From: Bdellovibrionales bacterium
GTDB taxonomy: Bacteria; Bdellovibrionota; Bdellovibrionia; Bdellovibrionales; UBA1609
Direction of reading: 5' to 3'
Assembly (NCBI GenBank): GCA_050246815.1
Contig: JBFWVI010000012.1
Location: 1-64,000, forward strand
Length of the DNA stretch: 64,000 nt
A model generated the notes under the pieces. It saw only the letters and a program-made list of their open reading frames with translations. It was not told where the DNA came from and did not search any database. This document shows positions 4,496 through 39,130 of the stretch, piece after piece; the first letter of the stretch is position 1; each line of letters starts with the position of its first letter. The position numbers and the translations under genes are program-made.

Positions 4496-4571
4496 AGGGA
4501 ATTAGCTCAGTTGGTAGAGCGCCACCCTTACAAGGTGGATGTCGTCGGTTCGAGCCCGGCATTCCCTACCA
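4496..4571 (+). tRNA. tRNA-Val (anticodon TAC)
   Basis: 76-nt cloverleaf: AGGGAAT/ATTCCCT acceptor stem, GCTC/GAGC D stem, CCACC-CTTACAA-GGTGG anticodon arm, GTTCGAGC T loop, encoded CCA. Confidence 0.98.
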
Positions 4572-6370
4572 AATCCTACAACTTGCAAATTTCCGACATC
4601 CAAATTGTGAAAATCCTCCCCTTCGGGGGAACCAGCGTCAGCCGACGCCGAATCAGGGAACGAGCCTGAGGGCTTCGCACGTCTTTTTTCTGCCATTTCA
4701 ATGACGTTATTTTCGTTAATCTTTGCCGTTGAGAGCTCGTCAGGAGTGACGGGCTTATTGAGGTCATGCTTCAAACGGAATTGAATCATGAGCCCTTTAG
4801 GACCAACCAGGATGAAATAAATGAGGTCCTTCAACAGAGACTTCTTTTGAACTGCTGACGCCTTTGCCCAGCCCCGTTTGAAGGCCATAAGCCGATCTTT
4901 GAGATCTAAAACGGCATCGTCAACGTCATCCTTAATAATCTCTTTGCCTTTAAGATTTTCAAGCTCTGCCTCAAGATGGCGTTTTTTTCGGCTCAGTTCC
5001 TCTAGCTCTCGGGCCGTTTCTTTGATGGCTTCGGAATCAGCATCCAAGGCCGACTGAATTTTGAAAGTGTTCTTTACGGCGAAAGTCACTTTTGAAAGTT
5101 CCTCTGAAAGCCGATTTCTTTCGGCTTTCAGCTGCTCCGGTGACTGCGAAACCATTTGTCTGATTCGTTCCTCAATATTTTCAAAGTGACCAGCTTGCAG
5201 AAGAATTGAGGACAAGTGTTCCGCAAGCTTTGACTCAATCTTGTCAGCTTTGATCCGTTTCATTGAGCAAGTGATGACATCACCCTTTTTGGTCGAGTGG
5301 ACATAATATCGGTGAACCTGCTTTGTTCCATGAGCGGATTGGCCGACAAGTTTTCGTCCGCACTCGTCGCAAAGGCAAAGCCCAGAGGCAGCAAAGACTC
5401 TTGTGACTGACGTATCAAGACGCATTCTTTCTCGTTCGGCATTTTCTTCTAGGATCTGGGCAGCGGTTTTGAACGTCACCTCATCAAGGATCGCGGGCCA
5501 TGAGGCGCGGTAGGTGCCGTACCTTTGCCACATTTTTAGTTTCCCTTGGTCTTTATTTTTATTCGACTTGTTGGCTTCGCGAACGGCAATGTAGGCACAG
5601 TTTTTAAGGACAAAACTCAAGGAGTCATGGGTCCAGCGGCCAGCTTTCACCAGACGGTTTCTGGAATTTTCTCGGGCTTTTGGTTTGATTCCTTCTGCCG
5701 CGAGAGTATCAATTGTGCGGCTTAAAGTTCTGTGTTCAATAAAGAGTTCAAAGATTCTACGAACCTGTTTTGCTTCGTCTTGATTGACGATGAAAGTTGC
5801 CTTCTTTGCCGGATCTTTATCATATCCAAGGATCGCAGGACCGCCGTTGAGAAACCCGCGTTGGGCGCGAGAATGGCAGTTGATGGCCACACGCTCTGAC
5901 GTTTGCTCCCGTTCAAACTGGGCCAAATTTATCATATTATAGAGCATCATTTTTCCAGCTGGCGTACTTGAATCAAATTGTTCTTTGATCGAAAAAAACT
6001 TCGCGCCGTGGTTTTCGAGCATCTTATGAAAGTCACAGAAGTCAGGAATATTGCGCGAGAGACGCGACAACTCCGTCACCATGACCGCATTGATCTTGCC
6101 GCTCTTCAGGGCTTTCATCATCCGCTCGTAGGCGGGACGATTGGTGTCTTTTGCCGAGTAGCCATCGTCAATGAAGTGCTCAACCAAGCGTCCCCAGCCA
6201 GGCTCTTGCATGTTTTTGATGTCGATAAAGGACTGCATTCGGTGACGCTGATTATCGAGTGAACCTTCGATAACATTTGCCTGCTCATCCGTTGAGACCC
6301 TCGAGTACGTCCCAACAAGAAGCGGAGTTGATGAACTGATGTTTACGTCAGGCTGCTTTTTGTTCTTCAT
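4502..6370 (-). CDS. Large serine recombinase (integrase); 3' end overlaps the tRNA antisense
   Basis: Catalytic YSRVST, DDGYSAKDTNRP, ELSRLSRN; recombinase domain (GYDKD...GRWT); Zn ribbon CDECG; coiled coil; ATG 6370 preceded by aaggag. Confidence 0.93.
   Translation of the reverse strand: MKNKKQPDVNISSSTPLLVGTYSRVSTDEQANVIEGSLDNQRHRMQSFIDIKNMQEPGWGRLVEHFIDDGYSAKDTNRPAYERMMKALKSGKINAVMVTELSRLSRNIPDFCDFHKMLENHGAKFFSIKEQFDSSTPAGKMMLYNMINLAQFEREQTSERVAINCHSRAQRGFLNGGPAILGYDKDPAKKATFIVNQDEAKQVRRIFELFIEHRTLSRTIDTLAAEGIKPKARENSRNRLVKAGRWTHDSLSFVLKNCAYIAVREANKSNKNKDQGKLKMWQRYGTYRASWPAILDEVTFKTAAQILEENAERERMRLDTSVTRVFAASGLCLCDECGRKLVGQSAHGTKQVHRYYVHSTKKGDVITCSMKRIKADKIESKLAEHLSSILLQAGHFENIEERIRQMVSQSPEQLKAERNRLSEELSKVTFAVKNTFKIQSALDADSEAIKETARELEELSRKKRHLEAELENLKGKEIIKDDVDDAVLDLKDRLMAFKRGWAKASAVQKKSLLKDLIYFILVGPKGLMIQFRLKHDLNKPVTPDELSTAKINENNVIEMAEKRRAKPSGSFPDSASADAGSPEGEDFHNLDVGNLQVVGFGRECRARTDDIHLVRVALYQLS
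4566..4586 (+). repeat. attL: left copy of direct repeat CTACCAAATCCTACAACTTGC
   Basis: Overlaps the tRNA 3' end; 20/21 identical to 37346-37366. Confidence 0.85.
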
Positions 6371-6554
6371 CCGAAATCTCCTTTCGCGGGCGTCCTCTTG
6401 TTTGACCAAGAAGGATAATTTTTGCGATCAATTTTTCCACTCGTTCACGTCGAGCCTCGGCGTCTTCGGAAGTGTCGGCAACACCTATCAGCTCAACAGT
6501 CATTTCCTCTTCGTCAAAATCCACCGCCGCTTTGTACGTGGACTTCCTACCCAC
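6348..6554 (-). CDS. Small protein upstream of the integrase (possible directionality factor or DNA-binding protein)
   Basis: GTG start overlapping the XRE gene stop; RGRPRK AT-hook-like motif; function inferred from position only. Confidence 0.5.
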   Translation of the reverse strand: MGRKSTYKAAVDFDEEEMTVELIGVADTSEDAEARRERVEKLIAKIILLGQTRGRPRKEISDEEQKAA

Positions 6555-6804
6555 GTTTTCGTCCTTTGGTGGACTTCTTTGCTTCATCCATGTGCCGCTG
6601 AAACTCCTCGAGAAAATCCTGAGCTTTTCGTTCTGAGAGACTTCCCAAGTAGCTCATCACGGCACTGATGAGCGGACTTGGCGTCCTAAACCCAGTTTCC
6701 AAGTGACTGATCGACTTCTTTCCAGCTAACCCTAAAACTTGAGCGAGTTCGTCTTGTGTGAGTCCCAGTTGTTCTCGTGTTTCTTTGAATTGTTTTGGAC
6801 TCAT
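6547..6804 (-). CDS. XRE/Cro-C1 family helix-turn-helix protein
   Basis: REQLGLTQDELAQVLGL...SISHLETGFRTPS. Confidence 0.88.
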   Translation of the reverse strand: MSPKQFKETREQLGLTQDELAQVLGLAGKKSISHLETGFRTPSPLISAVMSYLGSLSERKAQDFLEEFQRHMDEAKKSTKGRKRG

Positions 6805-7235
6805 ACAACGTCATCACTTTCCTGGAGTCTCTCATTGAGAGACTCTTGTTTCAAGTTCTTTTTTGCCTTTTTCGACGTCGCACTGACTTCGCCGAAGAAA
6901 TGTTTATCCAAAACAGCTTGGATGTCTGGCGGCAACTCTCCGATTGCCTTATACTTCTTCTGAACCGCATCGAGCATCGAAAATGCGTTTGCCGAGCGGC
7001 GGCGAATTTCCAGAATCACGTCATCAGGGGCATGGGCCTTAAACCAAAGGATCATGAAACTTGCGACGTCAAATCTTGTCGCCCGGCCTGCATCAAAGCC
7101 GTCGTTTACGGCATCTGCAAACTCCGCCACGACCGCTTCAGCCTCAAGACTTACGACCATTCGCCCTTCTTTTTTTGACGTTTCTTCTTTTGATTTTTGT
7201 TCTTTGTCTTCTGTATTTCTGTTTTCCTCCTTCAT
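6801..7235 (-). CDS. Hypothetical protein
   Basis: ATG after aggaggtg RBS; ATGA overlap with the XRE gene. Confidence 0.7.
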   Translation of the reverse strand: MKEENRNTEDKEQKSKEETSKKEGRMVVSLEAEAVVAEFADAVNDGFDAGRATRFDVASFMILWFKAHAPDDVILEIRRRSANAFSMLDAVQKKYKAIGELPPDIQAVLDKHFFGEVSATSKKAKKNLKQESLNERLQESDDVV

Positions 7236-7413: not shown

Positions 7414-8229
7414 TCATGCGGCTTCGCCTTCTTGGCTTTTTCTAAAGCGGACGCTTGTCCGATTTAGATCCGTTTTAGAACTGGCAATATCGACAGATTT
7501 TTTTGTTGCGATCTCCAGGAACTCCCTCATCGGCATTTGATTGCTTCCGAAGCGAATCGGAGCTTCAAGCGATTGAATTTCGAAATCTGAATACTGATAA
7601 AGACCAGGGATCTTTTTCTGGTCTGTGAAAGCGCGACCTTGAAAAGCACGACGAACGGCGTTCTCCGTCCAAGCGTTCCCACATGCAAACAGTGTTATTC
7701 CAATTTTTTTGTATCCTAGATAAGTGAGAGCCATCTTCGAGTAACGGGCTTGTGTCTTCGCCGTTTTTTCAACTTCAAGCGCGCAGCGCAAAGTGCCGGT
7801 TGCCGTCTTCAAATCAAAAACCATGTCGGGAATCCGATGAAGTCGTTCCGCGCCCAGGACCTGATAGGCTGTCATTGGATCTCGGAGAAGCTCATCTTCG
7901 AGCCAGTAGGCTGAAATGAGCTTTGTACGCTCCAGGGTCAGCAGGAACTTTGCTGCGATAGCATCATGCTCAATGTATGTGGGGAGCCGGGAGGGTCTTG
8001 CCGACTTTCCGAAATCTGACCTGCGGCTTTTAAGACTCAAAAGAAGAACTGAATCAGATGCGGCAGAACGAATGAATAATCCCGACGCCACCAAATGGCT
8101 CCAATATTCATAACACTGGCTTCGACCAAATCCACAAATGAAATCAAAAAAAATGTCTTTGGTCAGAAATCCCCAACGAGATGCGAAGACCTGAGCGTTT
8201 CGGATAATTTCTGAGTTCATTGTCCTCAT
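7414..8229 (-). CDS. Replication-relaxation (Replic_Relax/MOBC-like) PD-(D/E)xK relaxase
   Basis: EHD motif, RIPDMVF...ALEVEKTAKTQARY nuclease motif, N-terminal wHTH-like region; lies downstream of the coupling protein. Confidence 0.75.
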   Translation of the reverse strand: MRTMNSEIIRNAQVFASRWGFLTKDIFFDFICGFGRSQCYEYWSHLVASGLFIRSAASDSVLLLSLKSRRSDFGKSARPSRLPTYIEHDAIAAKFLLTLERTKLISAYWLEDELLRDPMTAYQVLGAERLHRIPDMVFDLKTATGTLRCALEVEKTAKTQARYSKMALTYLGYKKIGITLFACGNAWTENAVRRAFQGRAFTDQKKIPGLYQYSDFEIQSLEAPIRFGSNQMPMREFLEIATKKSVDIASSKTDLNRTSVRFRKSQEGEAA

Positions 8230-8510
8230 GGCGGCCCAACCTTTGTTGCTGGAATCAGGACAAAGTGCCCAAGTTCAATGCTGCCGTTTTCAAGATTGGG
8301 CTCGACCCAATCTAGAGTAAATTCAGACAAGGTGGTCCCTTTCAGACTTTGAGGGATCTTAAGCTCTGATCCAATAGTGACCTGACGAATACGGACCTGA
8401 CAGCTATTGGTCCCAGAAAGAATAATGCGAGCGCCTTGCGGATTGCCACACTTGGGAGAATGGGCACAGGCTGAAAGCATTGTTGTGAAAAGCAAGATAA
8501 ACCACTTCAT
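8226..8510 (-). CDS. Small lipoprotein (VirB7/TraV-like)
   Basis: Lipobox LSAC; ATGA overlaps at both ends within the T4SS operon. Confidence 0.6.
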   Translation of the reverse strand: MKWFILLFTTMLSACAHSPKCGNPQGARIILSGTNSCQVRIRQVTIGSELKIPQSLKGTTLSEFTLDWVEPNLENGSIELGHFVLIPATKVGPP

Positions 8511-10165
8511 GCTGCCGCCTTTCCGTCTTGCGGAGTCGAGAGCTCCTCGACGACATCCGCAGTTTCCTTTGCAGGCTGCGTTTGATCGCTCGGAGTATCA
8601 TCCTTAATTTTCGGAAGGCCCATGGGCATTGGTTTTAAAAGCTTCGGAATTTGCGGCACGTCGAGATCAAAAGTTCGTTTAAACTTGAGCCTGACAGAAA
8701 GGCTTCCAGTTTCGTGTGGAAGAACCACGACGGCCTCTCCGATCCCAAGCTCCTTCTTAAACACATTGGGGTGTACCTTATATTCCTCGACCTCGCGAAC
8801 AGATCCGTCGCCGGTTTTCTGACTTCCGAATGTGCCATCTTTTTGCCGCTCAGTGACTTTAACGGATCGAACAGTGCCGATGACGCCCGCGAAGTATTCC
8901 GCTGACTCGGGTTCGTTTGTTCTCATGAAAACTTTTAAGTTTGAGTTGGTCAGGATTGTGTTGCTTACACCTTCACCTAGAGATGCTAGATCACCTAATG
9001 CCTGATGAGCAAAGACGATTCCGACATTTGCACTTCTAGATTTATTCAGAAGTGTAACGAAATTGGGTGTGAGATATTCCGTGAAATCGTCCAGGTAAAC
9101 GGAAAAGAACTTCCGGCTGGTCGCACTTCCAAGATGCCGGGATGAAACTGCACTTTGGAGGCATTGGAGAATCAGCTTGCCAGTCATTTTGCCTAGAGTC
9201 GGAATCTTAAGGGCCGGAAGCTGGCAGTAAACGATTTCTCCATCCTCAAGAGCGCGCTCCAAATCAATGTCCGAATTTTCGCAGTTGAAAATGCTTGCAT
9301 TAGGCCCAATTGAAAAGCACTGAAGCTGTGCAATCAAGCCGCTTGTACGCTGTTCGCGCTCCTCGCGCTTGAGGCTTACAAAGTCATCCACCCAAGCCTG
9401 AAGCCTCTCGTCCTTTGAGTTTTCACGCAGATGAAGCAATTGCTTTTCTTGCTTCAGACACTCAATCATTCGATAGGGGGTAGCCTTAATTTTGGCTTCT
9501 TCCAGTAGAAGCAGGCAGTGCAGGAATGCGTCGTATTGTATGCTCCTAAAGTATTCATTTTCAAAAGTGAGGGCACCAAAGACCCTTTCAACGACTTCGA
9601 GCACAGATCCACCGGCCAGTGGGTTGAATGTGTGGCTGATCTCGGGACTACAAAGGGAAAGAATGCGGACATCGTGCTCGCGATGATGTTTTTTGGCGTA
9701 GGCATAAAGCTTGTTAAGGAGCCCGGAATCCGATTTACCGTCGATCATCAGAAGTCCTCGGCCTTTTTTGATGTCGTCTACGGCCCACGGGATGATGACG
9801 GACTCGGTCTTTCCGGCGTTTGTTGTGCCGACGACCTGAGTATGCATCCTTTTAAAGGATTGTTTGATATAAACAGATTTTCCCTCGGGTGTGATGCCAG
9901 CAAAAACGGCATCCTCATTTTCCCCTGGAGAAAGAACCAGTTTTTCCAGCTCGGCAGGTTTTCGCCGCTCGAGAAATTTTCGTTTTATCCAATAATAGGA
10001 GCCCATGATCAATGCTGTGATAGCGACAGCGATCCCGTAACGCCATTTCAAATAAAATGCGACGATCTGTAACTTGAATTTGAGCCAGACGATGAAACCT
10101 ACAAGTCCAACTGCTAAAATCGCAAAACCACGATCTGACATGCCTCCGTTCTTATTTTCATTCAT
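8507..10165 (-). CDS. virD4: Type IV coupling protein (VirD4/TraD/TraG family)
   Basis: Two N-terminal TM helices, HTQVVGTTNAGKT Walker A, IDGK, YLDDF Walker B, KSRSANV, ESAEYFAGVIGT. Confidence 0.9.
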   Translation of the reverse strand: MNENKNGGMSDRGFAILAVGLVGFIVWLKFKLQIVAFYLKWRYGIAVAITALIMGSYYWIKRKFLERRKPAELEKLVLSPGENEDAVFAGITPEGKSVYIKQSFKRMHTQVVGTTNAGKTESVIIPWAVDDIKKGRGLLMIDGKSDSGLLNKLYAYAKKHHREHDVRILSLCSPEISHTFNPLAGGSVLEVVERVFGALTFENEYFRSIQYDAFLHCLLLLEEAKIKATPYRMIECLKQEKQLLHLRENSKDERLQAWVDDFVSLKREEREQRTSGLIAQLQCFSIGPNASIFNCENSDIDLERALEDGEIVYCQLPALKIPTLGKMTGKLILQCLQSAVSSRHLGSATSRKFFSVYLDDFTEYLTPNFVTLLNKSRSANVGIVFAHQALGDLASLGEGVSNTILTNSNLKVFMRTNEPESAEYFAGVIGTVRSVKVTERQKDGTFGSQKTGDGSVREVEEYKVHPNVFKKELGIGEAVVVLPHETGSLSVRLKFKRTFDLDVPQIPKLLKPMPMGLPKIKDDTPSDQTQPAKETADVVEELSTPQDGKAAA

Positions 10166-11117
10166 ATTCGCCACCTCCTTCTTGAAGCCCTAGGGATTCA
10201 TTCAAGACGGCATCACATTCGCTGCCTGCCATGAGTTCGATCCACTCTCGTTCCGTTTTTAACTTTTCTCCGTAGACCTGGGCGCGTGATTGTGCCGTTG
10301 CCGACACCGCACCCAATAAGCCATTAGTCAGTCCTCCTTTTGATCGTCCAAGGATATCCGTTTCCATACTGCCCGAGGCCAAGCCTCCCACAAAAGTGGT
10401 GAGCACTTGTCCTGCTGTATTTTTCATTCCATCCGAGAAGATGCGGCCTTCGATTCCGGGCTGACCGTCCTTTCCGAGAGCTTGAGCTGAGATTTTCCGA
10501 ATCTGACCGCTCGGTAAGGAAAGCTGTGTGAATCGCACAGATGCTCTCTCGCTTCCGCGCTGAAAACTGGCTTCGCCGTAAAGTTTGGTGCCAGCCGGAA
10601 GCTTGAGTCCGGAATCTGTTTGCGAATCAAGGAGAAGTTCGGCAAGGACTGGTACCGGATCTTGAGAGATAATAACTTTATCAAGAATGCGAAGGGGAAG
10701 TCGGTGGCCCGCTCGGAGTTGAGTTTTGGCATTGCCTCCCTTCTGCCCAAGAATCATCGACGTGTTGTGATTGACTTGGCTTCCACCACCTCGGGGAAGC
10801 GAAACATGAGAAGAAGACCATAGAGAATGTGCAGCAGATTTTTGCGAGGACTTGTCTTGATTTTTTGCATCTGCGTTCGAACTTCTTGAGTCTGAATTTT
10901 CAACTTTTTCGGTGAATTCAAGAGGCACATCGTCCGGTAATAAGAAGACAACGCCTACGAATACAAAAACACTGGCAAGACCCAAGGTCTTAAAAGCCTT
11001 GAAATTCACATCTCCTTTTTGGCTTACATTGCTGTCTCGAATGAAAACCTTGCGGACGTTTGTGACCAGAGATTTCAATTTGCTTCCGGCATTTGCAATG
11101 AAAGACTTTACTTCCAT
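10158..11117 (-). CDS. VirB10/TrbI-like T4SS core protein
   Basis: N-terminal TM, low-complexity linker, LPAGTKLYG...DGQPGIEG motif. Confidence 0.82.
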   Translation of the reverse strand: MEVKSFIANAGSKLKSLVTNVRKVFIRDSNVSQKGDVNFKAFKTLGLASVFVFVGVVFLLPDDVPLEFTEKVENSDSRSSNADAKNQDKSSQKSAAHSLWSSSHVSLPRGGGSQVNHNTSMILGQKGGNAKTQLRAGHRLPLRILDKVIISQDPVPVLAELLLDSQTDSGLKLPAGTKLYGEASFQRGSERASVRFTQLSLPSGQIRKISAQALGKDGQPGIEGRIFSDGMKNTAGQVLTTFVGGLASGSMETDILGRSKGGLTNGLLGAVSATAQSRAQVYGEKLKTEREWIELMAGSECDAVLNESLGLQEGGGEYE

Positions 11118-11818
11118 AAAGTTCCCTCCGGCAAAGTCAGAGAGATTTTTTGTTTACTGCGAAGCTCGATGGTGAGGGACCTTTTCTCAAAAAGATCGGA
11201 TTTCGCAAGCGAAATTCCGATGAGGACCGGTTTTGATTTTGAAAGCTTGAGATCTGAAATGAAAAGTCCATTGATTACTTTCGATGTTCCGTTTTGTGTG
11301 ATCCAAAAATCGTCAGGCTTTAGAGTTGTGGTTTCAGTGGATGATGAGACGAGCTTGGCATCTAGTAGGATGAATCCCTGATTGGAATAGCCGATGCGAG
11401 AAATGGCGAATCTGATGCCATTGGCTTCAGTGAATCTGGAAACGGTTGTCCAGCGTGATACTGGTTTTGCTTCTGGATGTTTCACATAGACAACATAATC
11501 AGCCGTATCTTGCGACAGCGTGAGTAGGCGAAGATTGTAGCGACGTTTTTCGGTGTTCAGATATAAATTGGTCTTTACACCCCACCGCAAAGGCTTGATC
11601 GTTACTGCTTTGTCTAGGTACTCCACCTTAAAGCCAGAGCTATCGCCAATGATGGCGGACTGAATTGTCTCGGGAACCTGAATGATCGTGGCAATCCCAA
11701 GAGCCGCTCGGATGGTGAGGATCTCGTCACTGGTCGCCACTAAATTTCGGACATGCGCAAACGCAGGCCAAGATTGCAGAAAAATCGCCGTTAGGGCCAA
11801 GATTGTGACCCCCCTCAT
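11108..11818 (-). CDS. VirB9/TrbG-like T4SS outer-membrane core protein
   Basis: Signal peptide; TIIQVPETIQSAIIGDS...IKPL...TNLYLNTEKRRYNLRL. Confidence 0.82.
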   Translation of the reverse strand: MRGVTILALTAIFLQSWPAFAHVRNLVATSDEILTIRAALGIATIIQVPETIQSAIIGDSSGFKVEYLDKAVTIKPLRWGVKTNLYLNTEKRRYNLRLLTLSQDTADYVVYVKHPEAKPVSRWTTVSRFTEANGIRFAISRIGYSNQGFILLDAKLVSSSTETTTLKPDDFWITQNGTSKVINGLFISDLKLSKSKPVLIGISLAKSDLFEKRSLTIELRSKQKISLTLPEGTLWK

Positions 11819-12405
11819 GGTCTGGCCTCTTCTGTTTCCTTCGTGATATAGATTCCCCAAGGGTTCACCACTGTTCGATCATCCAAAGCTATTTGGAGAA
11901 CAAGGCGCATTTCGGTTGCGGCCTTGAGGTTTTCAAATTCAGTCACTCGGTCAGCGAGCACGGTGACTTTCTTTTCTTTAAGGTCGACATCGACGGACTT
12001 TGGATAAACACGCTGAGTAATTTTCTTTTCGCGAACGAATTTTTGAGTTTCAGCCATGGATTTATCAAACGCCGAGACAAGCGAAGGCAGAACAAAGAAT
12101 TTTGCCTTTGCGACCTGATTCGCAATTGTGCCGTCAGTCCAAGAGTAGCGATAGGAAACGTACTCTTTGATTGCAGCCTTGACCTGAAGGTCGGTCACTT
12201 TAGATTCGACCCTGGTGATTTCGCCGGTGTTGTCCAAGGCGATGACCATAGGTCCCTTTTTCACCAGATAAAGCACAAGAAGTAGCATGACAAAGAAAAG
12301 GCCCAGGAGACTTGCGCAAAGAAATTTAAGATTGAGATTTTCTTCGGCGAAGGTACGCATGGCTTTCGGATAAGAGCTGATTTGTAGTGTTGTTTTTTGA
12401 TTCAT
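11815..12405 (-). CDS. VirB8/TraE-like T4SS inner-membrane protein
   Basis: Single TM, C-terminal NPWGIYIT motif, position between VirB6 and VirB9. Confidence 0.78.
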   Translation of the reverse strand: MNQKTTLQISSYPKAMRTFAEENLNLKFLCASLLGLFFVMLLLVLYLVKKGPMVIALDNTGEITRVESKVTDLQVKAAIKEYVSYRYSWTDGTIANQVAKAKFFVLPSLVSAFDKSMAETQKFVREKKITQRVYPKSVDVDLKEKKVTVLADRVTEFENLKAATEMRLVLQIALDDRTVVNPWGIYITKETEEARP

Positions 12406-12420
12406 AGGTAGCACCTCCTT

Positions 12421-13299
12421 TTATGGCCGCTTGGGGCCGTTAATTTTGTTTTGAATAGATTGAAGTTTATGACTGGCAAATGCCCGAGTGTTTGAGAGCA
12501 CCTCACGCGTGATTGCCTTGGCAGCGAGCATCTTTCCGGGTAAAGCGACTGCTGCAAGGACCGCCGTCGTTCCGATGGTTTGAGCTGTTGCCTGGACTCC
12601 TTCTCCAATAAGCGAGTGCATAACCTTCGGTGTAAAAAGAAGGGCAATGGCTATCACGAAGTTCATCACGATTAGCGTCAGGTAAGAGCCATCCGTTCGA
12701 TAAATATTCCCGAAGGAAAGCGAGGTCAGCATTGCAGACATGATCGCCCACAAGATTTTCCAGCAAGCGACCTCGATGAGCCCCCGGTAAAGATTCGCGG
12801 TTATTCCCGCCGTCTTTGGGAAAATGTAACAAAGAATCATCAGGGGTGCGCAGACCGACAGGAGAACCCAGTAGAAATAATAAAGAGCAATCGTGATATA
12901 GCGGGCGATCAATAGCAGAACGAAACTTCCAAAGCTTAAGACCGCCATGAAGAGATCATCGAACTTAAGGAGCAGGACGTTCTTGGCGGTGGCATAGCTT
13001 TGCGATTTCTCCTGCGCCATGCGCATGAAAGTTTCAAGGCCCGACATATTATCAATTTTCGCGGCGATACCGTCGCAAATATCCAGAATGATATTTGATA
13101 CCTCAGGAAAAGAAGCCAGAAGCAGACTTGCAACGAGGGCCCGCTTGATTACGTCCGGATAATCGGCATCTCCGGATTTGAGGTATCCAAAGACAACCGA
13201 AAATAAAATTGCCAGCGGCAGCAACACGTAAAATAGCTGACTCAAGCCTTGATAGAGATCGCGGACCAGAGAGCCGAGCATGTCAAGATTTGGAATCAC
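12421..13299 (-). CDS. VirB6/TrbL-like polytopic membrane protein
   Basis: Multiple TM helices; APL...FPKT motif; operon position. Confidence 0.8.
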   Translation of the reverse strand: MIPNLDMLGSLVRDLYQGLSQLFYVLLPLAILFSVVFGYLKSGDADYPDVIKRALVASLLLASFPEVSNIILDICDGIAAKIDNMSGLETFMRMAQEKSQSYATAKNVLLLKFDDLFMAVLSFGSFVLLLIARYITIALYYFYWVLLSVCAPLMILCYIFPKTAGITANLYRGLIEVACWKILWAIMSAMLTSLSFGNIYRTDGSYLTLIVMNFVIAIALLFTPKVMHSLIGEGVQATAQTIGTTAVLAAVALPGKMLAAKAITREVLSNTRAFASHKLQSIQNKINGPKRP

Positions 13300-24172: not shown

Positions 24173-24200
24173 TGGCTTACCCCCACGCCGCTAAGAAGCA

Positions 24201-24385: not shown

Positions 24386-24401
24386 TGGATTATTTGAGCC
24401 A
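24386..24401. promoter_or_regulatory. Fourth copy of the palindromic box (TGGATTATTTGAGCCA)
   Basis: 12/16 identical to the 18522-18537 box; upstream of the regulator gene. Confidence 0.45.
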
Positions 24402-24548
24402 TGCTATCAATTAGACTTAGATCGTAAGCAATATCACCAACAACCCTTCAAAGATCAGATCGGGACATCATATAAGAAATAGTTTTAGCATTCGATGTGA
24501 CACAGGCGCGCTACACGCTAAATTTTGCTTATTTGGGGAAATTTGAAG

Positions 24549-25460: not shown

Positions 25461-25467
25461 AAGACCT

Positions 25468-26796: not shown

Positions 26797-26804
26797 AGCC
26801 TGTC

Positions 26805-28370: not shown

Positions 28371-28372
28371 AC

Positions 28373-29251: not shown

Positions 29252-29695
29252 TTAAGACTCCACATTTGTTTCCATTATTTTACAATTTTCAGAACTAATC
29301 CCATTTTCAATTTTAGTAAGTAGTCGCAAAAGTTCCTTTTGCTCTTTTGGCTCAAGAACAGAGGCCAGGTGGTCTGCAATTAGCCCGTATGTTTTTTCGA
29401 TTTTTGAAAAATTGCGAGAACCTTTCGCCGAAAGCGTAATAAATATTTGCCTTCTGTCGGAGACCCCGTGCTCTCGTTGCAGCCAGCCAGCAGCCACCAG
29501 CGAACTGACAATGCGGGTGACAGATGCTTTGTCGCTGTTTGTTCCATCAGCGATTTCGGCCATCGTGCATTGTTTTCGCTTACCGACCAGTCTTAATGCG
29601 ACAAGTTGCTTTGGCCCAAAGCCGAGCTCGCGAAGATAATGAACGGCCATGCGCCCGACAGCTCTTCGAGCACTACCATATTTCTCAAGAAGCAT
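29252..29695 (-). CDS. MarR-family transcriptional regulator
   Basis: DKASVTRIVSSLVAAGWL.R...DRRQIFITLSAKG; start chosen downstream of the promoter and operators. Confidence 0.9.
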   Translation of the reverse strand: MLLEKYGSARRAVGRMAVHYLRELGFGPKQLVALRLVGKRKQCTMAEIADGTNSDKASVTRIVSSLVAAGWLQREHGVSDRRQIFITLSAKGSRNFSKIEKTYGLIADHLASVLEPKEQKELLRLLTKIENGISSENCKIMETNVES

Positions 29696-29702
29696 GACAT
29701 TA

Positions 29703-29747
29703 CTTAACATATCAACTAAGTTAGGCAAATAAGATTGATATGTCAAT
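29703..29747 (-). promoter_or_regulatory. sigma70 promoter overlapped by two MarR-type operators
   Basis: TTGACA (29746-29741)-N17-TAACTT (29723-29718); imperfect palindromes attgatatgtcaat 29734-29747 and cttaacatatcaac 29703-29716. Confidence 0.65.
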
Positions 29748-29827
29748 TAATTGTTAAAAATGGCTTATTTCGGCACGGATTGAAATACGGGCGCAATAAC
29801 TCGTTGCCCTAGCTCCCTTGCGCTATT

Positions 29828-30193
29828 TCAATCTTGGGAGGAAAGCCAATGCGCCGCTCTTATAAGGTCACTGTAGAAGACCTTATAATCTCCTTCGCCA
29901 AATGCCAGGCGAGCTAAATATGCCATTCGAGCATCGCTCACCACAATCGCGCGACGAAACTGGGGCTCAGTCTTCTCTTGACTCAACTCCCACTGCTTTC
30001 TTGGTACTTCTATTGATGGATGAGACATTTCTAGAGCGTCAATTAATACACGTTCATTCCGCGAACTTTTGACTAACTTACGTATTTCCTCGCTCAGGTC
30101 TAAGAGCAGGTCCAGAGTGAGATTTCCTGTTATCCTCGCCACTACGATTTCGCCAACCAACTCCACTGAAAACTGCCCGGCCATCTTTTCCAT
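29828..30193 (-). CDS. Hypothetical protein, SpoIIAA/STAS-like fold
   Basis: ITGNLT...VLIDA...RRAIVV...VFYSDLIRAAHWL pattern. Confidence 0.6.
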   Translation of the reverse strand: MEKMAGQFSVELVGEIVVARITGNLTLDLLLDLSEEIRKLVKSSRNERVLIDALEMSHPSIEVPRKQWELSQEKTEPQFRRAIVVSDARMAYLARLAFGEGDYKVFYSDLIRAAHWLSSQD

Positions 30194-30201
30194 ACTCCAA
30201 C

Positions 30202-30642
30202 CTAGGCACGCTGACCTGGGAAATGTTTTTTGATGAAGACCGCTTTGGCGCGGACAATCTCCACACCGTTTGCAAGATGAAGGCTTGCGAAAGCTGTTAT
30301 TTTTCGACCTCGAATTTTTCCAACCGTAGCGTTCAACCTCAAATTCTTACAGAGAGGAGTGGGAGAAAGGAATTCGACTTCAAGCTTCAAGGTGTATCCT
30401 GTGTTTTGGCTAAGCCAAACAGCGGCTCCCATTGCTTCATCAAGTACCGACGCAATCGCGCCACCATGAACTCGCCCTGGGGGGCCTTCGGCGCGCTTTC
30501 CGAAGTACACGTCGGCAATGATTCGATCTCGTTTTGCGTTGGTGCCGTAACGAACCCGAATGAATCCTGAGCCCCTATTGCTAGACACAAAAGATCTGGA
30601 CTGACGAAATGGATTATTCTTAAGAGGAAATTTGACCTTCAT
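30202..30642 (-). CDS. PaaI-family hotdog-fold thioesterase
   Basis: EGPPGRVHGGAIASVLDEAMG. Confidence 0.9.
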   Translation of the reverse strand: MKVKFPLKNNPFRQSRSFVSSNRGSGFIRVRYGTNAKRDRIIADVYFGKRAEGPPGRVHGGAIASVLDEAMGAAVWLSQNTGYTLKLEVEFLSPTPLCKNLRLNATVGKIRGRKITAFASLHLANGVEIVRAKAVFIKKHFPGQRA

Positions 30643-30693
30643 TAGTGACTTGATTTCAATCCAAATACCTTCCCTTGCCCGGCAGCAAGCGCC

Positions 30694-31176
30694 CTACAAA
30701 AGACTCTCAATTTTGAGAGTGAGTGACTCCGGTTTTGTTTTCGGTGAAACTCGGGCCACAATACTTCCATGTCTATCAACTAAAAATTTTGTGAAATTCC
30801 ATTTGATACTTTTCGTACAAAAAATTCCTCTTTGTTCTTGCTTTAGAAATTGATAAAGCGGGTGTGCATTTGCGCCATTAACGTCTATCTTTGAAAACAA
30901 CGGAAAACTCACACCAAAATTAGATTCACAATAATTTTTGATTTCGTCCGCGTCCCCTGGCTCCTGTCCACCAAACTGATTGCAAGGAAATGCAAGAATT
31001 TCTAGTCCTCGAGAGTTGTACTTTCGGTAAAGATCCTCCAGGCCCTTATATTGCGGAGTGAATCCGCAATGACTCGCGACGTTTACTACAACGAGAACCT
31101 TGCCTTTGAATTCAGACATTTTGACATCTATGCCGCTTATGGCTTTTGCAGTGAAATCATACACGGTTGTTTTCAT
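30694..31176 (-). CDS. Glutathione peroxidase family protein
   Basis: VNVASHCGFTPQY, FPCNQFGGQEPG, WNFTKFL; ATG 31176. Confidence 0.93.
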   Translation of the reverse strand: MKTTVYDFTAKAISGIDVKMSEFKGKVLVVVNVASHCGFTPQYKGLEDLYRKYNSRGLEILAFPCNQFGGQEPGDADEIKNYCESNFGVSFPLFSKIDVNGANAHPLYQFLKQEQRGIFCTKSIKWNFTKFLVDRHGSIVARVSPKTKPESLTLKIESLL

Positions 31177-34100
31177 TAACGACCCCCACGATTTCAGGGG
31201 CAGACCCTTTATGTGAGCCATTTGTGACAACCGGATGGCCACCAGATTTAGATTTGTTTCCAACTAAGCGTAACACCAGTCCAAGACTCCAGACCCGATA
31301 ACGTTCCATATAAGAAAACGCCGCAGGCACAACCAGTAATGTTAGTAAAGTCGAACTGATCAATCCGCCGATAACCGCAACACCCATTCCTGTACGCTGC
31401 TTCGAGGCTTCGTTGAGTCCGATTGCAATGGGAAGCATGCCCGCAATCAAAGCAAAGGTTGTCATGAGAATAGGCCGCAATCGGACCTTTCCTGCCGCGA
31501 TAACTGCCTTAGAATAATCCATTCCCTCTTTAAGCATCTGATTCGTGTAATCTACCAGAAGAATTGAGTTCTTCGTTGCCACGCCAAGCAGCATGATACA
31601 ACCGATCATCGAGAAGATGTTGAGGGATTCGCCAGCCACCAAGAGTCCGAAAAAGGCTCCGCAAGCGGCGAGCGGCAAAACTAGCATAATCGTAAATGGA
31701 GTAACGAACGACTCATAAAGACTGGCAAGAACTAGGTATATGAACAATACACCTAGCAAGGCTGCAGCTATCATGCTGGAGATAAGCTCCTGAAAGTTTT
31801 CAGCCTGCCCAACAAAGGCATACTTCATTCCAGGAGGAAGCTTGATGTCGTTTGCAAACATTTGCTGAATGTCCGTCATTACGGCACCCATGCCAGGACC
31901 TTTAGGCGCGACATCTGCTGCGATCTGAATATACCGGCCACGATCTTGCCGCGTGATATTTGCAGGCCCCGTGGTTTCTACAGGTTGCGCCACGCTGCTC
32001 AAGCGCACTAGGCTTTGATTCACATTCGGCACGAATGTATCGCCAAAAGCTTGTTTCAAATTTCTCTGATTTTCTTCAAGGCGAACTCGAATGTCATATT
32101 CTTCGCCCTTCTCCCTAAATACCGCAGCAACAGTGCCTTCGATTTGAGTTCGAAGCTCCTGCCCAATTGTAGTCGTAGCAACTCCAAGTCGTTCAGCTCT
32201 TACTTTGTCAGGAACTACTTGGAACTCTGGCTTTCCTGGGCGATAGGTAACATCGACGTCTTTAAGGGCCGGATGATCTTTTAATCTTTCGTACACTTTG
32301 TTCGAAACTTCCTCAATCTGAGCGAGATCAGTACCAATGATATTTAGGTTGAAGGGACGTTGACCGCCCATGACCATGTCGATGTCTTTTACAATTGGTC
32401 GCGCTTTTGCGAAGGGTTTCAGTTGCTCCCGCACTTTATCTTTAAAATCAGATGTATTTATCTTCCTTTGATCACTAGGAACCATAGTAACAAAGAATTG
32501 GGCTTTATTTGCCTCTCCAGTTCTTCCTCCGATGATCATTACAGAATCTGCGACCTCAGGGTTAGCTCTCATTATTTTATCAACTTCTACTGCCACTTCT
32601 GACATCGCATTCAAGCTGGTCCCCGGTGGCATATCAAGTGATACCGAAAACTCTCCCATATCTTGTGCTGGCAAGAACGTCTTCGGGATGAATTTTACGA
32701 TCCACAAGCTCCCAACAAAAATGATAATGCTAGTTCCAATGACTAAGAGAGGATTCTTCAGCGTCCAACCGAGAATTTCTTCATAGCGATTTTCAAGCCA
32801 GGTTTGAAATCGATCAAATCCTCCGACCAAACGACCCATCGTTTTGCCCCAAAAACCTTTGCTATCTTTTGGGCCATGGGTTGTACCGGCAAAATAAGCG
32901 GAAAGCATGGGGGCCATAGTTACAGCATCAAACAAACTGATTGCCATCGCAAAACAAACCGTCAGGCCGAATTCCTTAAAGAATTGCCCTACGACGCCCT
33001 TTAAAAATCCTATCGGAGCAAATACTGAGACCACGGCGAGAGTTGTCGCAATTACGGCGAGGAGAACTTCTTTGGTTCCATCGGACGCAGCTTGTATAGG
33101 TTCTTTACCCAATTCGGTATGCCGGAAAATATTCTCACGAACGACGATGGCGTCATCAATTAAAAGACCAACCGCAAGGCTCAGCGCCAAAAGTGACATG
33201 ACATTGATGGTGAATCCAGCCGTGGACATCAAAAAGAAAGCGCCGATCAAGGACGTAGGAAGCGCCAAACCCGTAATGAAAGTCGACCGACCGCTACCGA
33301 GGAAGAAATAAACCACGATAATCGTCAAAATAATTCCGATAATGATCGCCTCATAAACGTCGGCGACATTGGCGCGAATCATTTTTGATCCATCACGAAC
33401 AACTGTAACTTTCCCACCATTAAGTTCAGAGTTTAATTTTTCAACACGAGCTTTCACGGCATCGGCGACAGCAATTGTATTCGCTCCGGATTGTCTGAAA
33501 ACCATCATGAAGACCGACCGCTCACCGTTGGTATAAGCACGTGACTTTTCATCTTGAACCGTATCAACAACTTGGCCGACATCGGCCACTGTCACAGGGA
33601 CGTCGTTCCCCAGGAAACTGACAATGACAGAACTGATATCCTTTACATTTTTAAATTCACCTAATGTTCTAAAGACCGTTTCTGTCTTTGCTTCGTCTAC
33701 TTTTCCGGCAGGGATGTTTTGTCCGGCTGCTGAAATGCGACTGACGACCGTTGAGGCTGAAACCTCGTAGGATTTTAATTTTTTGCGGTCCAACTCAACG
33801 TGAATTTCTCTCTCACGACCACCGATAATTTCAACCAGTCCAACCTGGTTAACCTGCTCGATCTTTGGCTTTACTGTTTTATCAGCGAGATCAAACAACT
33901 CAGCCTCAGGAAGCTTTGCAGTCAGAGCGAGAATAACAATGGGCTGATCCGCCGGGTCGATTCTCCGGATCACTGGCTCTTCAATATCTTTGGGGAGCTT
34001 GCGTTTAGCGGAGCTAACTCGGTCGCGGATTTGTTGTTCCGCATACTTAATATCGGTTTCTAGTGTAAATTCAGCGATTACCATACTCAGGCCTTCGCTG

Positions 34101-34351
34101 TTTGTTGAGCGCAATGTTTTAATCCCCGTGACGGTGCTCATTTCCTCTTCGAGTACACGTGAGACAAGGGTTTCAACTTCTTCGGGTCCAGCTCCAGGGT
34201 AAAGAGTACTTACTGAAACAATAGGAAATGTGATGTTTGGAAACAAATCTACCGACATGCTTCTTAGAGACATATAACCGAGAGCCAGAAGAATAATGGC
34301 GAGCGCTGTAACAAAAACGGGCCGCTTGATGGAAATATCTGCTGGGCTCAT
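31157..34351 (-). CDS. RND efflux transporter permease (AcrB/SwrC-like)
   Basis: GLLIDDAIVVRENI, KNSILLVD, RLRPILMTT; 1064 aa. Confidence 0.95.
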   Translation of the reverse strand: MSPADISIKRPVFVTALAIILLALGYMSLRSMSVDLFPNITFPIVSVSTLYPGAGPEEVETLVSRVLEEEMSTVTGIKTLRSTNSEGLSMVIAEFTLETDIKYAEQQIRDRVSSAKRKLPKDIEEPVIRRIDPADQPIVILALTAKLPEAELFDLADKTVKPKIEQVNQVGLVEIIGGREREIHVELDRKKLKSYEVSASTVVSRISAAGQNIPAGKVDEAKTETVFRTLGEFKNVKDISSVIVSFLGNDVPVTVADVGQVVDTVQDEKSRAYTNGERSVFMMVFRQSGANTIAVADAVKARVEKLNSELNGGKVTVVRDGSKMIRANVADVYEAIIIGIILTIIVVYFFLGSGRSTFITGLALPTSLIGAFFLMSTAGFTINVMSLLALSLAVGLLIDDAIVVRENIFRHTELGKEPIQAASDGTKEVLLAVIATTLAVVSVFAPIGFLKGVVGQFFKEFGLTVCFAMAISLFDAVTMAPMLSAYFAGTTHGPKDSKGFWGKTMGRLVGGFDRFQTWLENRYEEILGWTLKNPLLVIGTSIIIFVGSLWIVKFIPKTFLPAQDMGEFSVSLDMPPGTSLNAMSEVAVEVDKIMRANPEVADSVMIIGGRTGEANKAQFFVTMVPSDQRKINTSDFKDKVREQLKPFAKARPIVKDIDMVMGGQRPFNLNIIGTDLAQIEEVSNKVYERLKDHPALKDVDVTYRPGKPEFQVVPDKVRAERLGVATTTIGQELRTQIEGTVAAVFREKGEEYDIRVRLEENQRNLKQAFGDTFVPNVNQSLVRLSSVAQPVETTGPANITRQDRGRYIQIAADVAPKGPGMGAVMTDIQQMFANDIKLPPGMKYAFVGQAENFQELISSMIAAALLGVLFIYLVLASLYESFVTPFTIMLVLPLAACGAFFGLLVAGESLNIFSMIGCIMLLGVATKNSILLVDYTNQMLKEGMDYSKAVIAAGKVRLRPILMTTFALIAGMLPIAIGLNEASKQRTGMGVAVIGGLISSTLLTLLVVPAAFSYMERYRVWSLGLVLRLVGNKSKSGGHPVVTNGSHKGSAPEIVGVVNENNRV

Positions 34352-35775
34352 CGGCCACCTCCAAATGTCTTAAGTTGCGCGAAAATATTTAGCACTTCCG
34401 CTTGGGCACGAATGCGAGCCAGTTGTGAACTGGCGAAATCTTGCTCGAATAAAATGACCTGATAGGTCGTAGTGCGTCCGCGTTTGTGACGATTTCGTTC
34501 ATGATCAAGCTTTGTTCTCTGAGCTGATTCAATTTGGCGTGCAAGATCTAACCTTTGTCGTGCTTCAGAGAATTTTTTATTGAGATCGTTCCACAAGCGT
34601 TGTTCTTCAAATGATTTTTGCTGATAAACCATCTGGGCAGCTCGAGATTCACTTTCATAGGCACGACGGTCATCGCTTAATTGGCCTAAATCAAGTGGCA
34701 TGTTAAAGCGTATTCCAACAGTGCTATGGGGGTGCTTATCCGTAAAGGACTCAGACATTGACTCATCGGATTTAGGATCACGTCCGTTAAGCCCAACATT
34801 GACGTAAGCATCGAAAGTGGGTTTGTTTCGCTGTCTCGCAAGCTCTGCGTTGGCTTGTGCGGCGATCTGCTCTTGCTCCGCTGCTTTAACGTCCTCTCGA
34901 ACTCCTTTTTTATCCGGAGCCTTAAGATTTTTAATTGTATTCTCATCAAAGCCATTTAAATTTTCAGAGACCAGGTCGGACTCGATGCCTCGTGAGGTAT
35001 TGAAAGCACGGCTTGCAGCCTTCTCCTCATCTGTAGCAGATTGTACTTCAAGTCTACGTGATAACAATGCCGCTTCAGCCTGAAGAAAATCCGCCTTGTC
35101 GGCGAGATCCAACTTTGTGCGACCAGAGCTCCAGCTTCGGATTCTTTCAGCACGTTCCAGATTTTCTTTGGCCGCAGCTAAGGCTTCACGGGCTAAAGCC
35201 AGACGCCAATAAAGAGATTCCGCTTCAGCGCCAATAGATGTCTGGCGGAAGCTCGCCAAGTATTTTGCGGAAAGTGCTTGGGCCTCCTGCAATCTCTGCG
35301 TCGCCCGAATTTCACCACCGAACCCATTTTTACCAAAAGATTGTGTCAACTCCAGGTAGGGTCCGGTAGTAAAAAAATGTGGGTCTGCAAGGAAAGAGGG
35401 ATTAGCCCCATTAACGGTCGTATCGTTGTAATTATATGAAAGCTTGGCAGCAAGACCAAAGCTTGTTTGCTGACTGATTCCTAAACTGTAGGTATCTACC
35501 GTTGTTTCATTTCCCTGCAATGTCGGAGAGCTTACTTCTCGTTTATCATTAAACCTTTGGGCTAGCCCAAATAATGATGGCGACGTTAAAAGCGTCCACT
35601 CTTCCTTTCTCAATTCAGCGGCTTCTTCGCTTATTTCGGCGCCTTTATATATTCCGTTTTTAGCACCTACCTGCTTAAGGTAATCATCAAGACTCAGCTT
35701 TGTGGCTGCGGAATCCTGAGCCCATGCAGGGCAGATTGTTAATACGCTAGTAATTATAGCTAACCATCTACTCAT
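34348..35775 (-). CDS. TolC-family outer-membrane protein
   Basis: Signal peptide; DFLQAE and GRTTTYQVILFE repeats; coupled to the RND gene. Confidence 0.85.
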   Translation of the reverse strand: MSRWLAIITSVLTICPAWAQDSAATKLSLDDYLKQVGAKNGIYKGAEISEEAAELRKEEWTLLTSPSLFGLAQRFNDKREVSSPTLQGNETTVDTYSLGISQQTSFGLAAKLSYNYNDTTVNGANPSFLADPHFFTTGPYLELTQSFGKNGFGGEIRATQRLQEAQALSAKYLASFRQTSIGAEAESLYWRLALAREALAAAKENLERAERIRSWSSGRTKLDLADKADFLQAEAALLSRRLEVQSATDEEKAASRAFNTSRGIESDLVSENLNGFDENTIKNLKAPDKKGVREDVKAAEQEQIAAQANAELARQRNKPTFDAYVNVGLNGRDPKSDESMSESFTDKHPHSTVGIRFNMPLDLGQLSDDRRAYESESRAAQMVYQQKSFEEQRLWNDLNKKFSEARQRLDLARQIESAQRTKLDHERNRHKRGRTTTYQVILFEQDFASSQLARIRAQAEVLNIFAQLKTFGGGR

Positions 35776-36476
35776 TTTAAATTCTCCTTGGACTCTGAAC
35801 TTCTGGCCGATAAGCCTTCAAGAAAAATAGGAAGTATTTGTTCCTCAAGCTTTTTGCGGACAGCGGGCATTTGGACTGAAAAATTAAATAATTTTTCGTT
35901 TAATGTATTCAATCGCCCTAATTGATTCAGACTTCCTATAAAAAGGGATGCCGCAATAAAGGGGTCTATGTCTTTTCGAATCAGCCCCTTTTTTGCGGCA
36001 GAATCGAAGAATTTCAGGAGACACTCAAAGACTTTTAGAAAAGTTTCAGCGAAAATATCTCTGGCAACAGGTAGACCTAATTCGCACTCTCGGTGAATAA
36101 TCGCGGTTAGTTCAGGTTCATCCGTATAGCAGACGAGCATTTGTTCTATGAACATCTGAAGCCTGACGCGAACCTCTTCAGTGTTTTCGGCAGGACGTAA
36201 TATCCTTTCTGCCAACTCCAGATTTTCTCGCCCAAATTCATTTAAACAGGATTTGTATAACCCTTCTTTTCCATTAAAGTAGTAGCTGATCAAACTTACA
36301 TTCGCTCCGGCCTGCTCAGCGATTTCCTTTACTGAGGTTCCCGCATAGCCTTGGGACGAAAACAGCATAGTCGCTGCTGAAATCAAAAGTTGCTTGGTCG
36401 TCTCATGCGTAGGATCCGACGTGTGATTAGACTTCGCTTCTTCTTTTTTGGAATTTCGAACCTTTACTTTTCCCAT
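35772..36476 (-). CDS. TetR/AcrR-family regulator
   Basis: FSSQGYAGTSVKEIAEQAGANVSLISYYFNGKEGLY. Confidence 0.93.
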   Translation of the reverse strand: MGKVKVRNSKKEEAKSNHTSDPTHETTKQLLISAATMLFSSQGYAGTSVKEIAEQAGANVSLISYYFNGKEGLYKSCLNEFGRENLELAERILRPAENTEEVRVRLQMFIEQMLVCYTDEPELTAIIHRECELGLPVARDIFAETFLKVFECLLKFFDSAAKKGLIRKDIDPFIAASLFIGSLNQLGRLNTLNEKLFNFSVQMPAVRKKLEEQILPIFLEGLSARSSESKENLK

Positions 36477-36616
36477 GATTTTCTAATCCCTCAGATAAAA
36501 ATATCGGTCATATTGACAAAATAATTAATCAATTTATTGAAAAAATTCAAATGCTCATTTTAATATATTGCGTTACTTCGCTAGTTTTAGATGGTTTTAA
36601 GTCCTGGCCAAAAGGC

Positions 36617-36838
36617 TCAATGATTTGTGTGGCGAAACGATGTCTTCTGTTCTACGGCAAGTGAAGCTTTCGATGTTGACGGGAAAAATCGAGGACTGCC
36701 CCAGGTCGACGTACGGGATTGATAAACCACTTTGGCCTGTGCCCGCCAGATCCATGCTTGTAGAACGTCAAGCTTTCCCATGACAGCAAATGCGATTACG
36801 ATAACAGCAATCCAGGTAAAAAGTTTGTCGAGATTCAT
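36617..36838 (-). CDS. Small hypothetical membrane protein
   Basis: RBS aaggagagg; N-terminal TM; ATGA overlap with the upstream ORF. Confidence 0.6.
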   Translation of the reverse strand: MNLDKLFTWIAVIVIAFAVMGKLDVLQAWIWRAQAKVVYQSRTSTWGSPRFFPSTSKASLAVEQKTSFRHTNH

Positions 36839-37350
36839 GTGACCTCTCCTTTTGTTAGTATTGTTAGTAAAGTCAGTTTTTTGGCTTTAAGCCTTTGAAC
36901 GATGTTAAAGACGTGAGCCTGGCCCCAAGATTTCCCATGGCGAGTTTTGAATCCTTTCCTGCTCAAATGTCGGGCGATCTCAGTTGGAGTGTGGCCGAGC
37001 TGACGTTGCTTTTCGATCATTTGGAGAATTGAATACTCGCGAGGGTCCTTTTGGAGTCGGCCTTCGAGGTAGCAGTATCCATATGGTGGCGGCGCTGAGT
37101 TTTTGAAAGTCTGCCGCTGCCCCCCCGAAAAGCTGACGGATTTATTCGTTCTGAGCGTCACTCCCAATCTGATGAGCTGGTCTCGGACAGTAGAATAGGG
37201 AAATCCAAGCCGGTCACCGATCTCGTTTATAGAGAGGCCTTGCTCGTAAAATGCTTTAAAATCAGCGTTTTCGTGGGAAATTTTGTGGATGCTGATCTCA
37301 ATGAAATCATGTACTTGACTCAGATTGCAGGTTCTCGGAAGATGGCTACC
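36835..37350 (-). other. Detached C-terminal integrase module (HTH plus recombinase-like domain), in frame with the integrase across att
   Basis: Stop-free frame from the att GGT codon (37350) to TGA 36835; GLSINEIGDRLGFPYSTVRDQL HTH and PPYGY...EIARHL...KTRHGKSW motif; no ATG/GTG/TTG upstream of 37167. Confidence 0.75.
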
Positions 37351-37366
37351 AAATTCTACAACTTGC
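37346..37366 (+). repeat. attR: right copy CTACCAAATTCTACAACTTGC
   Basis: 20/21 identical to 4566-4586. Confidence 0.85.
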
Positions 37367-39106: not shown

Positions 39107-39130
39107 AATATAAAAAACAAGGAGTCTCAA

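Follow-up and report, generated by a model that had tools for sequence, protein, structure and literature searches.

An integrase gene cut at its own attachment site

The integrase gene of an integrative and conjugative element (ICE) from a Bdellovibrionales bacterium was analysed in a 64-kb stretch of DNA (positions 1 to 64,000 of contig JBFWVI010000012.1, assembly GCA_050246815.1), hereafter called the window. ARAGORN called a single tRNA gene in the window, tRNA-Val(TAC). The ICE is 32.8 kb long, with a GC content of 46% compared with 50% in the flanks, and an integrase, a coupling protein and type IV secretion genes, as in other ICEs, are present between its attachment (att) ends. As judged from the reading frames and their conservation, the integrase gene spans attP, and one reading frame is cut at a glycine codon that coincides with the CCA of the tRNA. 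The features concerned are the following.

4496..4571, + strand: tRNA-Val(TAC), the insertion target; the element starts at its CCA end (ARAGORN)
4566..4571: attL core CTACCA (coding strand TGGTAG), with a match to attR that runs on to 4589 (sequence comparison)
4502..6370, - strand: large serine integrase, integrated short form, 622 aa (Pfam and translation of the open reading frame, ORF)
36835..37350, - strand: start-less distal frame of 171 codons, comprising a linker, a helix-turn-helix (HTH, about residues 29-61) and a second recombinase-type winged helix (about 92-150) (Pfam, profiles, AlphaFold and family tests)
37346..37351: attR core CTACCA (conservation in 18 close relatives starts here)

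The two att copies (4566-4589 and 37346-37369) are identical at 22 of 24 bases, a match for which the chance expectation in the window is about 1e-6. As the match is ungapped, any crossover within it would keep the reading frame. The GGT codons at 4570-4568 and 37350-37348 lie in the same codon phase, at the coordinates given in an earlier, sequence-only reading of this DNA; the GGT within the attL core encodes the junction glycine, which is nearly invariant at that place in the family alignment. Among 18 close relatives of the distal frame, conservation starts precisely at TGG, the reverse complement of CCA, and identity beyond the core, in the outer attB arm, is 26%.

To the right of CTACCA at attR, 28 of 30 bases, read by eye, match the integrase-side arm of a family member (L114), which adds one feature to the list.

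37352..37381: relic arm from the integrase side of an older element belonging to the family (28/30 bases as in the L114 arm; its translation resembles an integrase end)

This match indicates that the attL of an older element served as the insertion site of the present one, and that the 24-bp repeat is for the most part a relic. Insertion into an attL-like site was recorded for the window element and also for G222:C46 and G164:C16. The real att core is probably about 6 bp long, approximately CTACCA, and the frame argument is unaffected by this shorter core. The region 37370-45700, with a GC content of 45% compared with about 50% in the flanks, contains a LysR gene, a weak RelE/ParE-like ORF (39799-40155), and FIST and SpoIIE genes, and is probably the remains of the older island.

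A separate motif, AACCGTAGAAC, was noted at 37428-37445 (- strand) in the window and also at loci L036, L045, L061 and L103. It lies 40-130 bp outside the attR core, sometimes as tandem 8-bp units, and was found exactly in 5 of 100 flanks and with two mismatches or fewer in 7 of 100, compared with 1 in control windows. This motif may be the mark of another element type's arm at these sites.

The short integrase and the start-less distal frame

From the ATG at 6370, the integrase reads 600 codons and then GRECRARTDDIHLVRVALYQLS, the final 22 residues being antisense to the tRNA. The Pfam domains Resolvase, Recombinase and Zn ribbon are present in this order, and the family alignment shows their invariant residues. 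The layout is a catalytic domain (21-172), a recombinase domain (RD, 198-310), a Zn ribbon (329-386), a conserved body to about residue 540, a variable linker and the 22 antisense residues; the att cut falls at residue 601, past all Pfam domains and about 60 residues beyond the conserved body. The enzyme is not an SSV1-type integrase, as its domains are those of serine recombinases and the split leaves the catalytic domain joined to the gene start. It did not reach the curated NCBIfam cut-offs for CcrB (125 of 900 bits) or XisF (113 of 375).

The distal frame is bounded by an in-frame TGA at 37419-37417, 22 codons upstream, and its earliest ATG, GTG or TTG is at 37167. These bounds had been stated in the sequence-only reading and were confirmed, together with the lengths of the integrated form (600+22 codons, 622 aa) and of the form made when the ends are joined (600+171 codons, 771 aa). 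The first 61 codons of the frame contain CTG, ATT, ATC and ATA, none with an obvious Shine-Dalgarno sequence, and a search of the coding strand near attR, which is a weak test, found no promoter-like site. On this reading of the frames, what remains after integration is an enzyme of 600 residues that has all standard domains and a junk antisense end, and the last 171 codons are parked without a start at the other end of the element. We infer, with good support from the relatives described below, that this tail would be made only when the element ends join. The claim that the HTH part can be made only after circularisation is thus well supported by the relatives, but non-canonical starts do occur in the frame and the long form is also encoded at tandem-array junctions.

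Conservation of the split in relatives

An integrase profile (E<=1e-40) matched 160, and a tail profile (E<=1e-8) 196, of 362 genomes of the class. The close homologues belong to Bdellovibrionaceae or Bdellovibrionales by their source labels. Among 53 distinct full-length integrases in the fetched loci, 34 run across the 3' end of a tRNA or transfer-messenger RNA (tmRNA) gene and 5 are fused to a tail; the other 14 have no called RNA gene, and none ends short of a called one. The RNA genes crossed are tmRNA and the tRNAs for Leu, Ala, Met, Val, Arg, Pro, Gly, Asp, Ser and Gln.

The frame was tested in integrase/tail pairs on the same contig and strand, 27 of which were taken from the top matches listed. 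In 21 of the 23 testable pairs, the window included, the frame-blind best match to the RNA 3' end was in frame. The proposal of one gene split by its own attP, with the distal module conserved in frame, is thus strongly supported across the family. The position of the cut was also largely constant: TGG lies 22 nt ahead of the start of the tail profile in 82 of 114 distinct full tails and 23 nt ahead in 13. A stop codon was found within the eight linker codons in only 3 of 104 unfused tails, compared with 35 of 101 for the next eight codons outside the core.

The distal frame might instead be a separate small gene with a non-canonical or internal start, encoding a recombination directionality factor (RDF) or an accessory subunit that acts in trans, with the in-frame junction being incidental. 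Some ATG, GTG or TTG lies ahead of the HTH in 72 of the 104 unfused tails (an ATG in 31, none of the three codons in 32), tails outnumber integrases in the genome counts above, which were made at different thresholds, and the module stands in databases as stand-alone proteins of 150-200 aa. However, no start position is shared among the 104 tails, and the open frame is kept exactly to the att core and no further. The ratio of nonsynonymous to synonymous substitution rates (dN/dS) among 17 relatives was 0.29 over codons 1-21, 0.24 over codons 1-60 (a segment with no ATG, GTG or TTG in the window) and 0.10 further on, compared with 1.3 outside the element. Codons without a start are therefore under purifying selection, although the first tail codons may also be constrained as an att arm. 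With the missing promoter-like site as a further point, if a weak one, a separate gene is considered very unlikely.

The same data bear on the idea that the tail is dispensable and its frame kept by descent alone. Some tails are frameshifted (L060 and G000:C107), but the dN/dS values are low along the whole tail (0.10-0.29) and the frame is kept across elements that use many RNA genes and whose integrases are 33-48% identical to the nearest sampled relative; this idea is highly improbable. The split, its position and its upkeep by selection are established by these comparisons of frames and substitution rates, from which we conclude that the tail is translated from upstream, as the C-terminus of one split gene.

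Integrases that were 80-90% identical were observed at different tRNAs (Val and Met) with the final acceptor-end bases in common, among P0003-P0017 and in the comparison of G184:C23 with G135:C13. This suggests easy target switching between tRNAs.

Nature of the tail

The HTH and second recombinase-type domain that the sequence-only reading had seen in the distal frame were recovered by hidden Markov model search, with Pfam matches to HTH_23 (3e-6) and Recombinase (6e-4, slightly short of the curated cut-off). At E<=0.01, Pfam Recombinase was found in 25 and HTH_38 in 23 of 27 aligned tails, and the tail profile matched residues 150-245 of the SPbeta integrase, its RD, with E 4e-7. An AlphaFold model of the tail (mean predicted local distance difference test score, pLDDT, 80) places a three-helix HTH at residues 29-61 and a winged-helix unit from residue 92 onwards, with a linker of lower confidence between them. 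Foldseek gave no significant match to this model; its weak rows included the RD domains of the SPbeta, Bxb1 and LI integrases and paired domains. The tail-profile search of representatives was dominated by multi-HTH repeat proteins, and a word search for longer relatives of the tail found none, although fusions exist. The reading of the tail that best fits profiles and model is that of a bipartite module for DNA binding in which the RD is duplicated. In a 654-aa homologue (P0120) the end appears, by eye, to be a short tail with the HTH alone and not the HTH plus RD.

Such a module might act outside the recombination chemistry, the long form being a circle-specific DNA-binding regulator, for example in promoter repression or circle tethering. 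The bipartite build, with HTH and winged helix on a flexible linker and a variable linker to the body, would fit this role, and the best structural likenesses, all weak, include paired-domain and Cbp1-type repeat binders. The second domain nevertheless resembles most closely the RD with which serine integrases bind att arms, and an XRE regulator is already present on the element. A purely regulatory tail is therefore rather improbable.

Natural fusions, arrays and remnants

The survey for homologues of about 770 aa proposed in the sequence-only reading yielded natural fusions of 726-779 aa. One (P0011, 769 aa, also found as locus L101) carries the tail and is 79% identical to the window integrase, a second (P0039) has 726 aa with the tail, and loci L091, L105, L125 and L126 encode fusions of 730-779 aa. 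P0011/L101 and L091 are tandem-array junctions, at which the tail comes from the neighbouring element that now abuts the tRNA. L105 and L126 look chimeric too; L125 and P0039, whose context was not readable, could be cognate.

Degenerate copies were found in the genome of the window itself at tRNA-Arg (G000:C4), tRNA-Met (C107) and tRNA-Leu (C62). They consist of 3' fragments of the integrase, without a catalytic domain, beside the tRNA, two of them with a tail 2-6 kb away.

These fusions and remnants are also what would be expected if the integrase were suicidal, in the manner of SSV1 or pTN3. The short form would then be inactive or unstable in both directions, and the element would be trapped until an incoming circle or a tandem junction supplied the long form. 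Full-length chimeric genes are indeed re-formed at the tandem junctions and decayed remnants are common; such an enzyme was proposed for dsiB by McMurdie et al. (PMC3146451) and is described in a review of archaeal elements (PMC8371274). On the other side, the catalytic, RD, zinc and coiled-coil parts are intact here and the cut lies well past the conserved body, unlike in SSV1, and a conserved RDF-like candidate gene is present. The integrase of Mx8, moreover, is described in a review as changing its specificity on integration without being inactivated (PMC6070905). A suicidal enzyme is considered unlikely.

Cassettes of 1-6 kb, and also arrays, that carry a tail with no integrase found in the fetched stretch were observed at L336 (G023:C21), L060, L061, L062, L063 and L079, several of them beside a tRNA end; the L336 tail is about 80% identical to that of the window. 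These cassettes are either deletion remnants or cassettes moved in trans. Small serine resolvase-like genes (frames of about 240 codons) lie near some tails (L058, L059 and L103), recalling DsiA of the Dehalococcoides islands.

Two further candidates were rejected. N-terminally shortened integrases, considered as a distinct satellite gene, had heterogeneous starts and look like deletions, and the antisense end, considered as a degradation tag, varied from 7 to 46 residues with no common end.

Plasmid and phage records contained no match covering 80% of the 769-aa protein, and viral contigs gave nothing or distant integrases only. Metagenomes contained three loci, of which the near-full-length one was integrated at tRNA-Val. 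In contigs of four public runs over 27000-46000, the rows listed showed neither a joint nor a loose end at the attR core, which is uninformative on excision. A joint of 43011 to 37408 in two runs fell on an A-rich look-alike and was taken as chance.

Other genes of the element

The remaining genes of the element are listed below.

6348..6587, - strand: 79-aa ORF overlapping the integrase start, RDF candidate (position and conservation)
6547..6804, - strand: XRE-type HTH regulator, 85 aa (Pfam HTH_3, 2e-7; in 18/20 related elements)
6801..7235, - strand: conserved ORF without family, 144 aa (in 16/20 related elements, E<1e-6)
7414..8229, - strand: 271-aa ORF that weakly resembles replication-relaxation proteins of the MobC type and may encode a relaxase (NCBIfam NF041423, E 0.0075, far short of its cut-off)
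8507..17066, - strand: conjugation cluster with coupling protein, VirB10, B9, B8, B6, VirB4/TraC and VirB2-like genes (Pfam)
18591..36476, - strand: cargo with two-component genes, Usp, MarR with an EmrAB/outer-membrane efflux set, glutathione peroxidase, RND pump and TetR (Pfam, NCBIfam)

In 17 of 20 related elements (E<0.005), a homologue of the 79-aa ORF directly precedes the integrase. The ORF matched no Pfam family and had no Atlas match, and its protein may be a conventional RDF. The cargo at 25468-36476 includes two efflux sets, one with MarR, EmrAB-type and outer-membrane genes and the other with TetR and the RND pump, for which the generic DHA2 family model alone passed its cut-off and no named resistance gene did.

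Proposed mechanism

The reading that we favour, with a probability of about one half, is that the long form integrates, its tail offsetting an arbitrary outer arm, and that the short form excises together with a small protein. A circle arriving by conjugation would make the 771-aa form, which would be the integrating enzyme; the tail would add DNA contacts and help it to engage a target with a fixed tRNA-side arm and an arbitrary outer arm. After insertion the short form alone would be made, so that integration would shut itself off and be self-limiting. Excision would be carried out by the short form with the small upstream protein as RDF, and the XRE gene would be in control. In tandem arrays, fusion of the older integrase to the tail of the newer element would bring a chimeric long form back into the chromosome. 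The suggestion of the sequence-only reading that the two isoforms may set recombination direction or stability is plausible.

Several points weigh against this reading. That the tail helps in target capture is a suggestion of ours, and neither an attP junction nor a free circle of the element was seen; the public runs were represented by contigs only. Intact tails persist in cassettes in which no integrase was found, and the model explains these only as recent remnants. Four of the 27 pairs were dropped from the frame test as no RNA gene was called, and two of the 23 were out of frame by best score; for one of these (G069:C5) the second-best match looks in frame, and in the other (G164:C2) the core looks decayed. 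The kin compared are not independent, so the counts overstate significance. The identities of integrase and tail over 25 elements were closely correlated (Pearson 0.92), which fits a single gene but would be expected as well for any two genes of one element. The RDF call for the 79-aa ORF was made by position and conservation, because RDFs are described as having no shared sequence and as binding the junction of the zinc ribbon domain and the coiled coil (PMC11795197).

A wider picture, offered tentatively, is that of a widespread serine integrase family with an architecture rewritten by its own reaction. The third, detachable DNA-binding module of the circle form (HTH and duplicated RD) might let it insert, through one specific half-site, at the CCA ends of numerous genes for tRNA and tmRNA. 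Arrays might shuffle bodies and tails, since each insertion gives the newcomer's tail to the resident's integrase, and integrase-less cassettes retaining only the arm on the tail side, moved in trans, might build up integron-like arrays at tRNA ends.

Comparison with known systems

The sequence-only reading named no precedent for a large serine recombinase with an added DNA-binding module. It overlooked close precedents for the split among enzymes of this class: attP within the integrase gene is, as a principle, already published for DsiB and the Goe14 integrase, as well as for Mx8 and SSV1. DsiB, from the ssrA islands of Dehalococcoides, is a large serine recombinase of about 540 aa whose 3' end runs antisense into the target RNA gene, in tandem arrays; dsiB always overlaps attL, and its authors suggest that it may be complete, and fully functional, only when on the circle or next to a neighbouring island (McMurdie et al., PMC3146451). 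It differs in that tmRNA is the sole target, a second small serine recombinase is invoked, and the missing 3' fragment is, in the available text of that paper, uncharacterised and assigned no added domain. The integrase of Bacillus phage vB_BsuS-Goe14 also has attP in its C-terminal coding region and loses 131 aa on integration, and its authors speculate that the long form serves integration and the short form excision (bioRxiv 10.1101/2021.11.22.469490). In contrast to the present element, Goe14 is a phage that targets a protein gene, spoVK, and the accessible part of the preprint describes a tail without similarity to known structure and no sprB-like RDF. In four genomes reached via distant integrase matches, among which was a Dehalococcoidia bin, our tail profile was matched only in part.

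The integrase of the myxophage Mx8 is a tyrosine recombinase, and the Mx8 and Mx9 enzymes differ from the present one in class, chemistry and att architecture. They resemble it in that attP lies within int and integration gives a new 3' end (PMC6070905; PMC4383910); Mx8 is listed among tyrosine integrases by Islander (PMC4383910). The suicidal integrases of SSV1, pTN3 and pT26-2 likewise have a gene that is split by integration, with chimeric genes that can re-form between related elements (PMC8371274). They are tyrosine enzymes in which the catalytic part is cut from the start, whereas here the catalytic body remains whole and an accessory DNA-binding tail is removed.

The canonical enzymes SPbeta SprA (with SprB), Bxb1 and phiC31 share the catalytic-RD-zinc ribbon order and a short crossover core, and the candidate for a small RDF is a further likeness (PMC11795197; PMC11722253). 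Unlike the present integrase, they have one RD and a gene that is intact in both states. What sets the present system apart from them is the conditional second RD-like domain, the use of the CCA end of many tRNAs and of tmRNA, and an unconstrained outer attB arm. In 2014, according to Islander, tRNA genes were not known as targets of serine integrases (PMC4383910). No description of a folded HTH and RD tail, or of such a family in Bdellovibrionota, was found in a literature search that was thin on subscription papers, and the dsiB and Goe14 supplements could bear on the tail; the available text of two further papers (PMC12884075 and PMC13626063) contained nothing on either.

Implications

The direction of large serine integrases is normally ascribed to a separate RDF; in the present case, a folded DNA-binding module is gained or lost through the recombination itself. 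The split integrase therefore gives a clean two-protein test of direction control. For enzyme mining the finding is a warning, as chromosomal annotation represents the short form and cloning screens may test the wrong isoform. Proteins of 150-200 aa annotated in Bdellovibrionota as stand-alone 'recombinase family proteins' probably do not represent separate genes. The family is common in its class, being present in 160 of the 362 genomes, and it uses many tRNA types and tmRNA, targets that are found in every bacterium.

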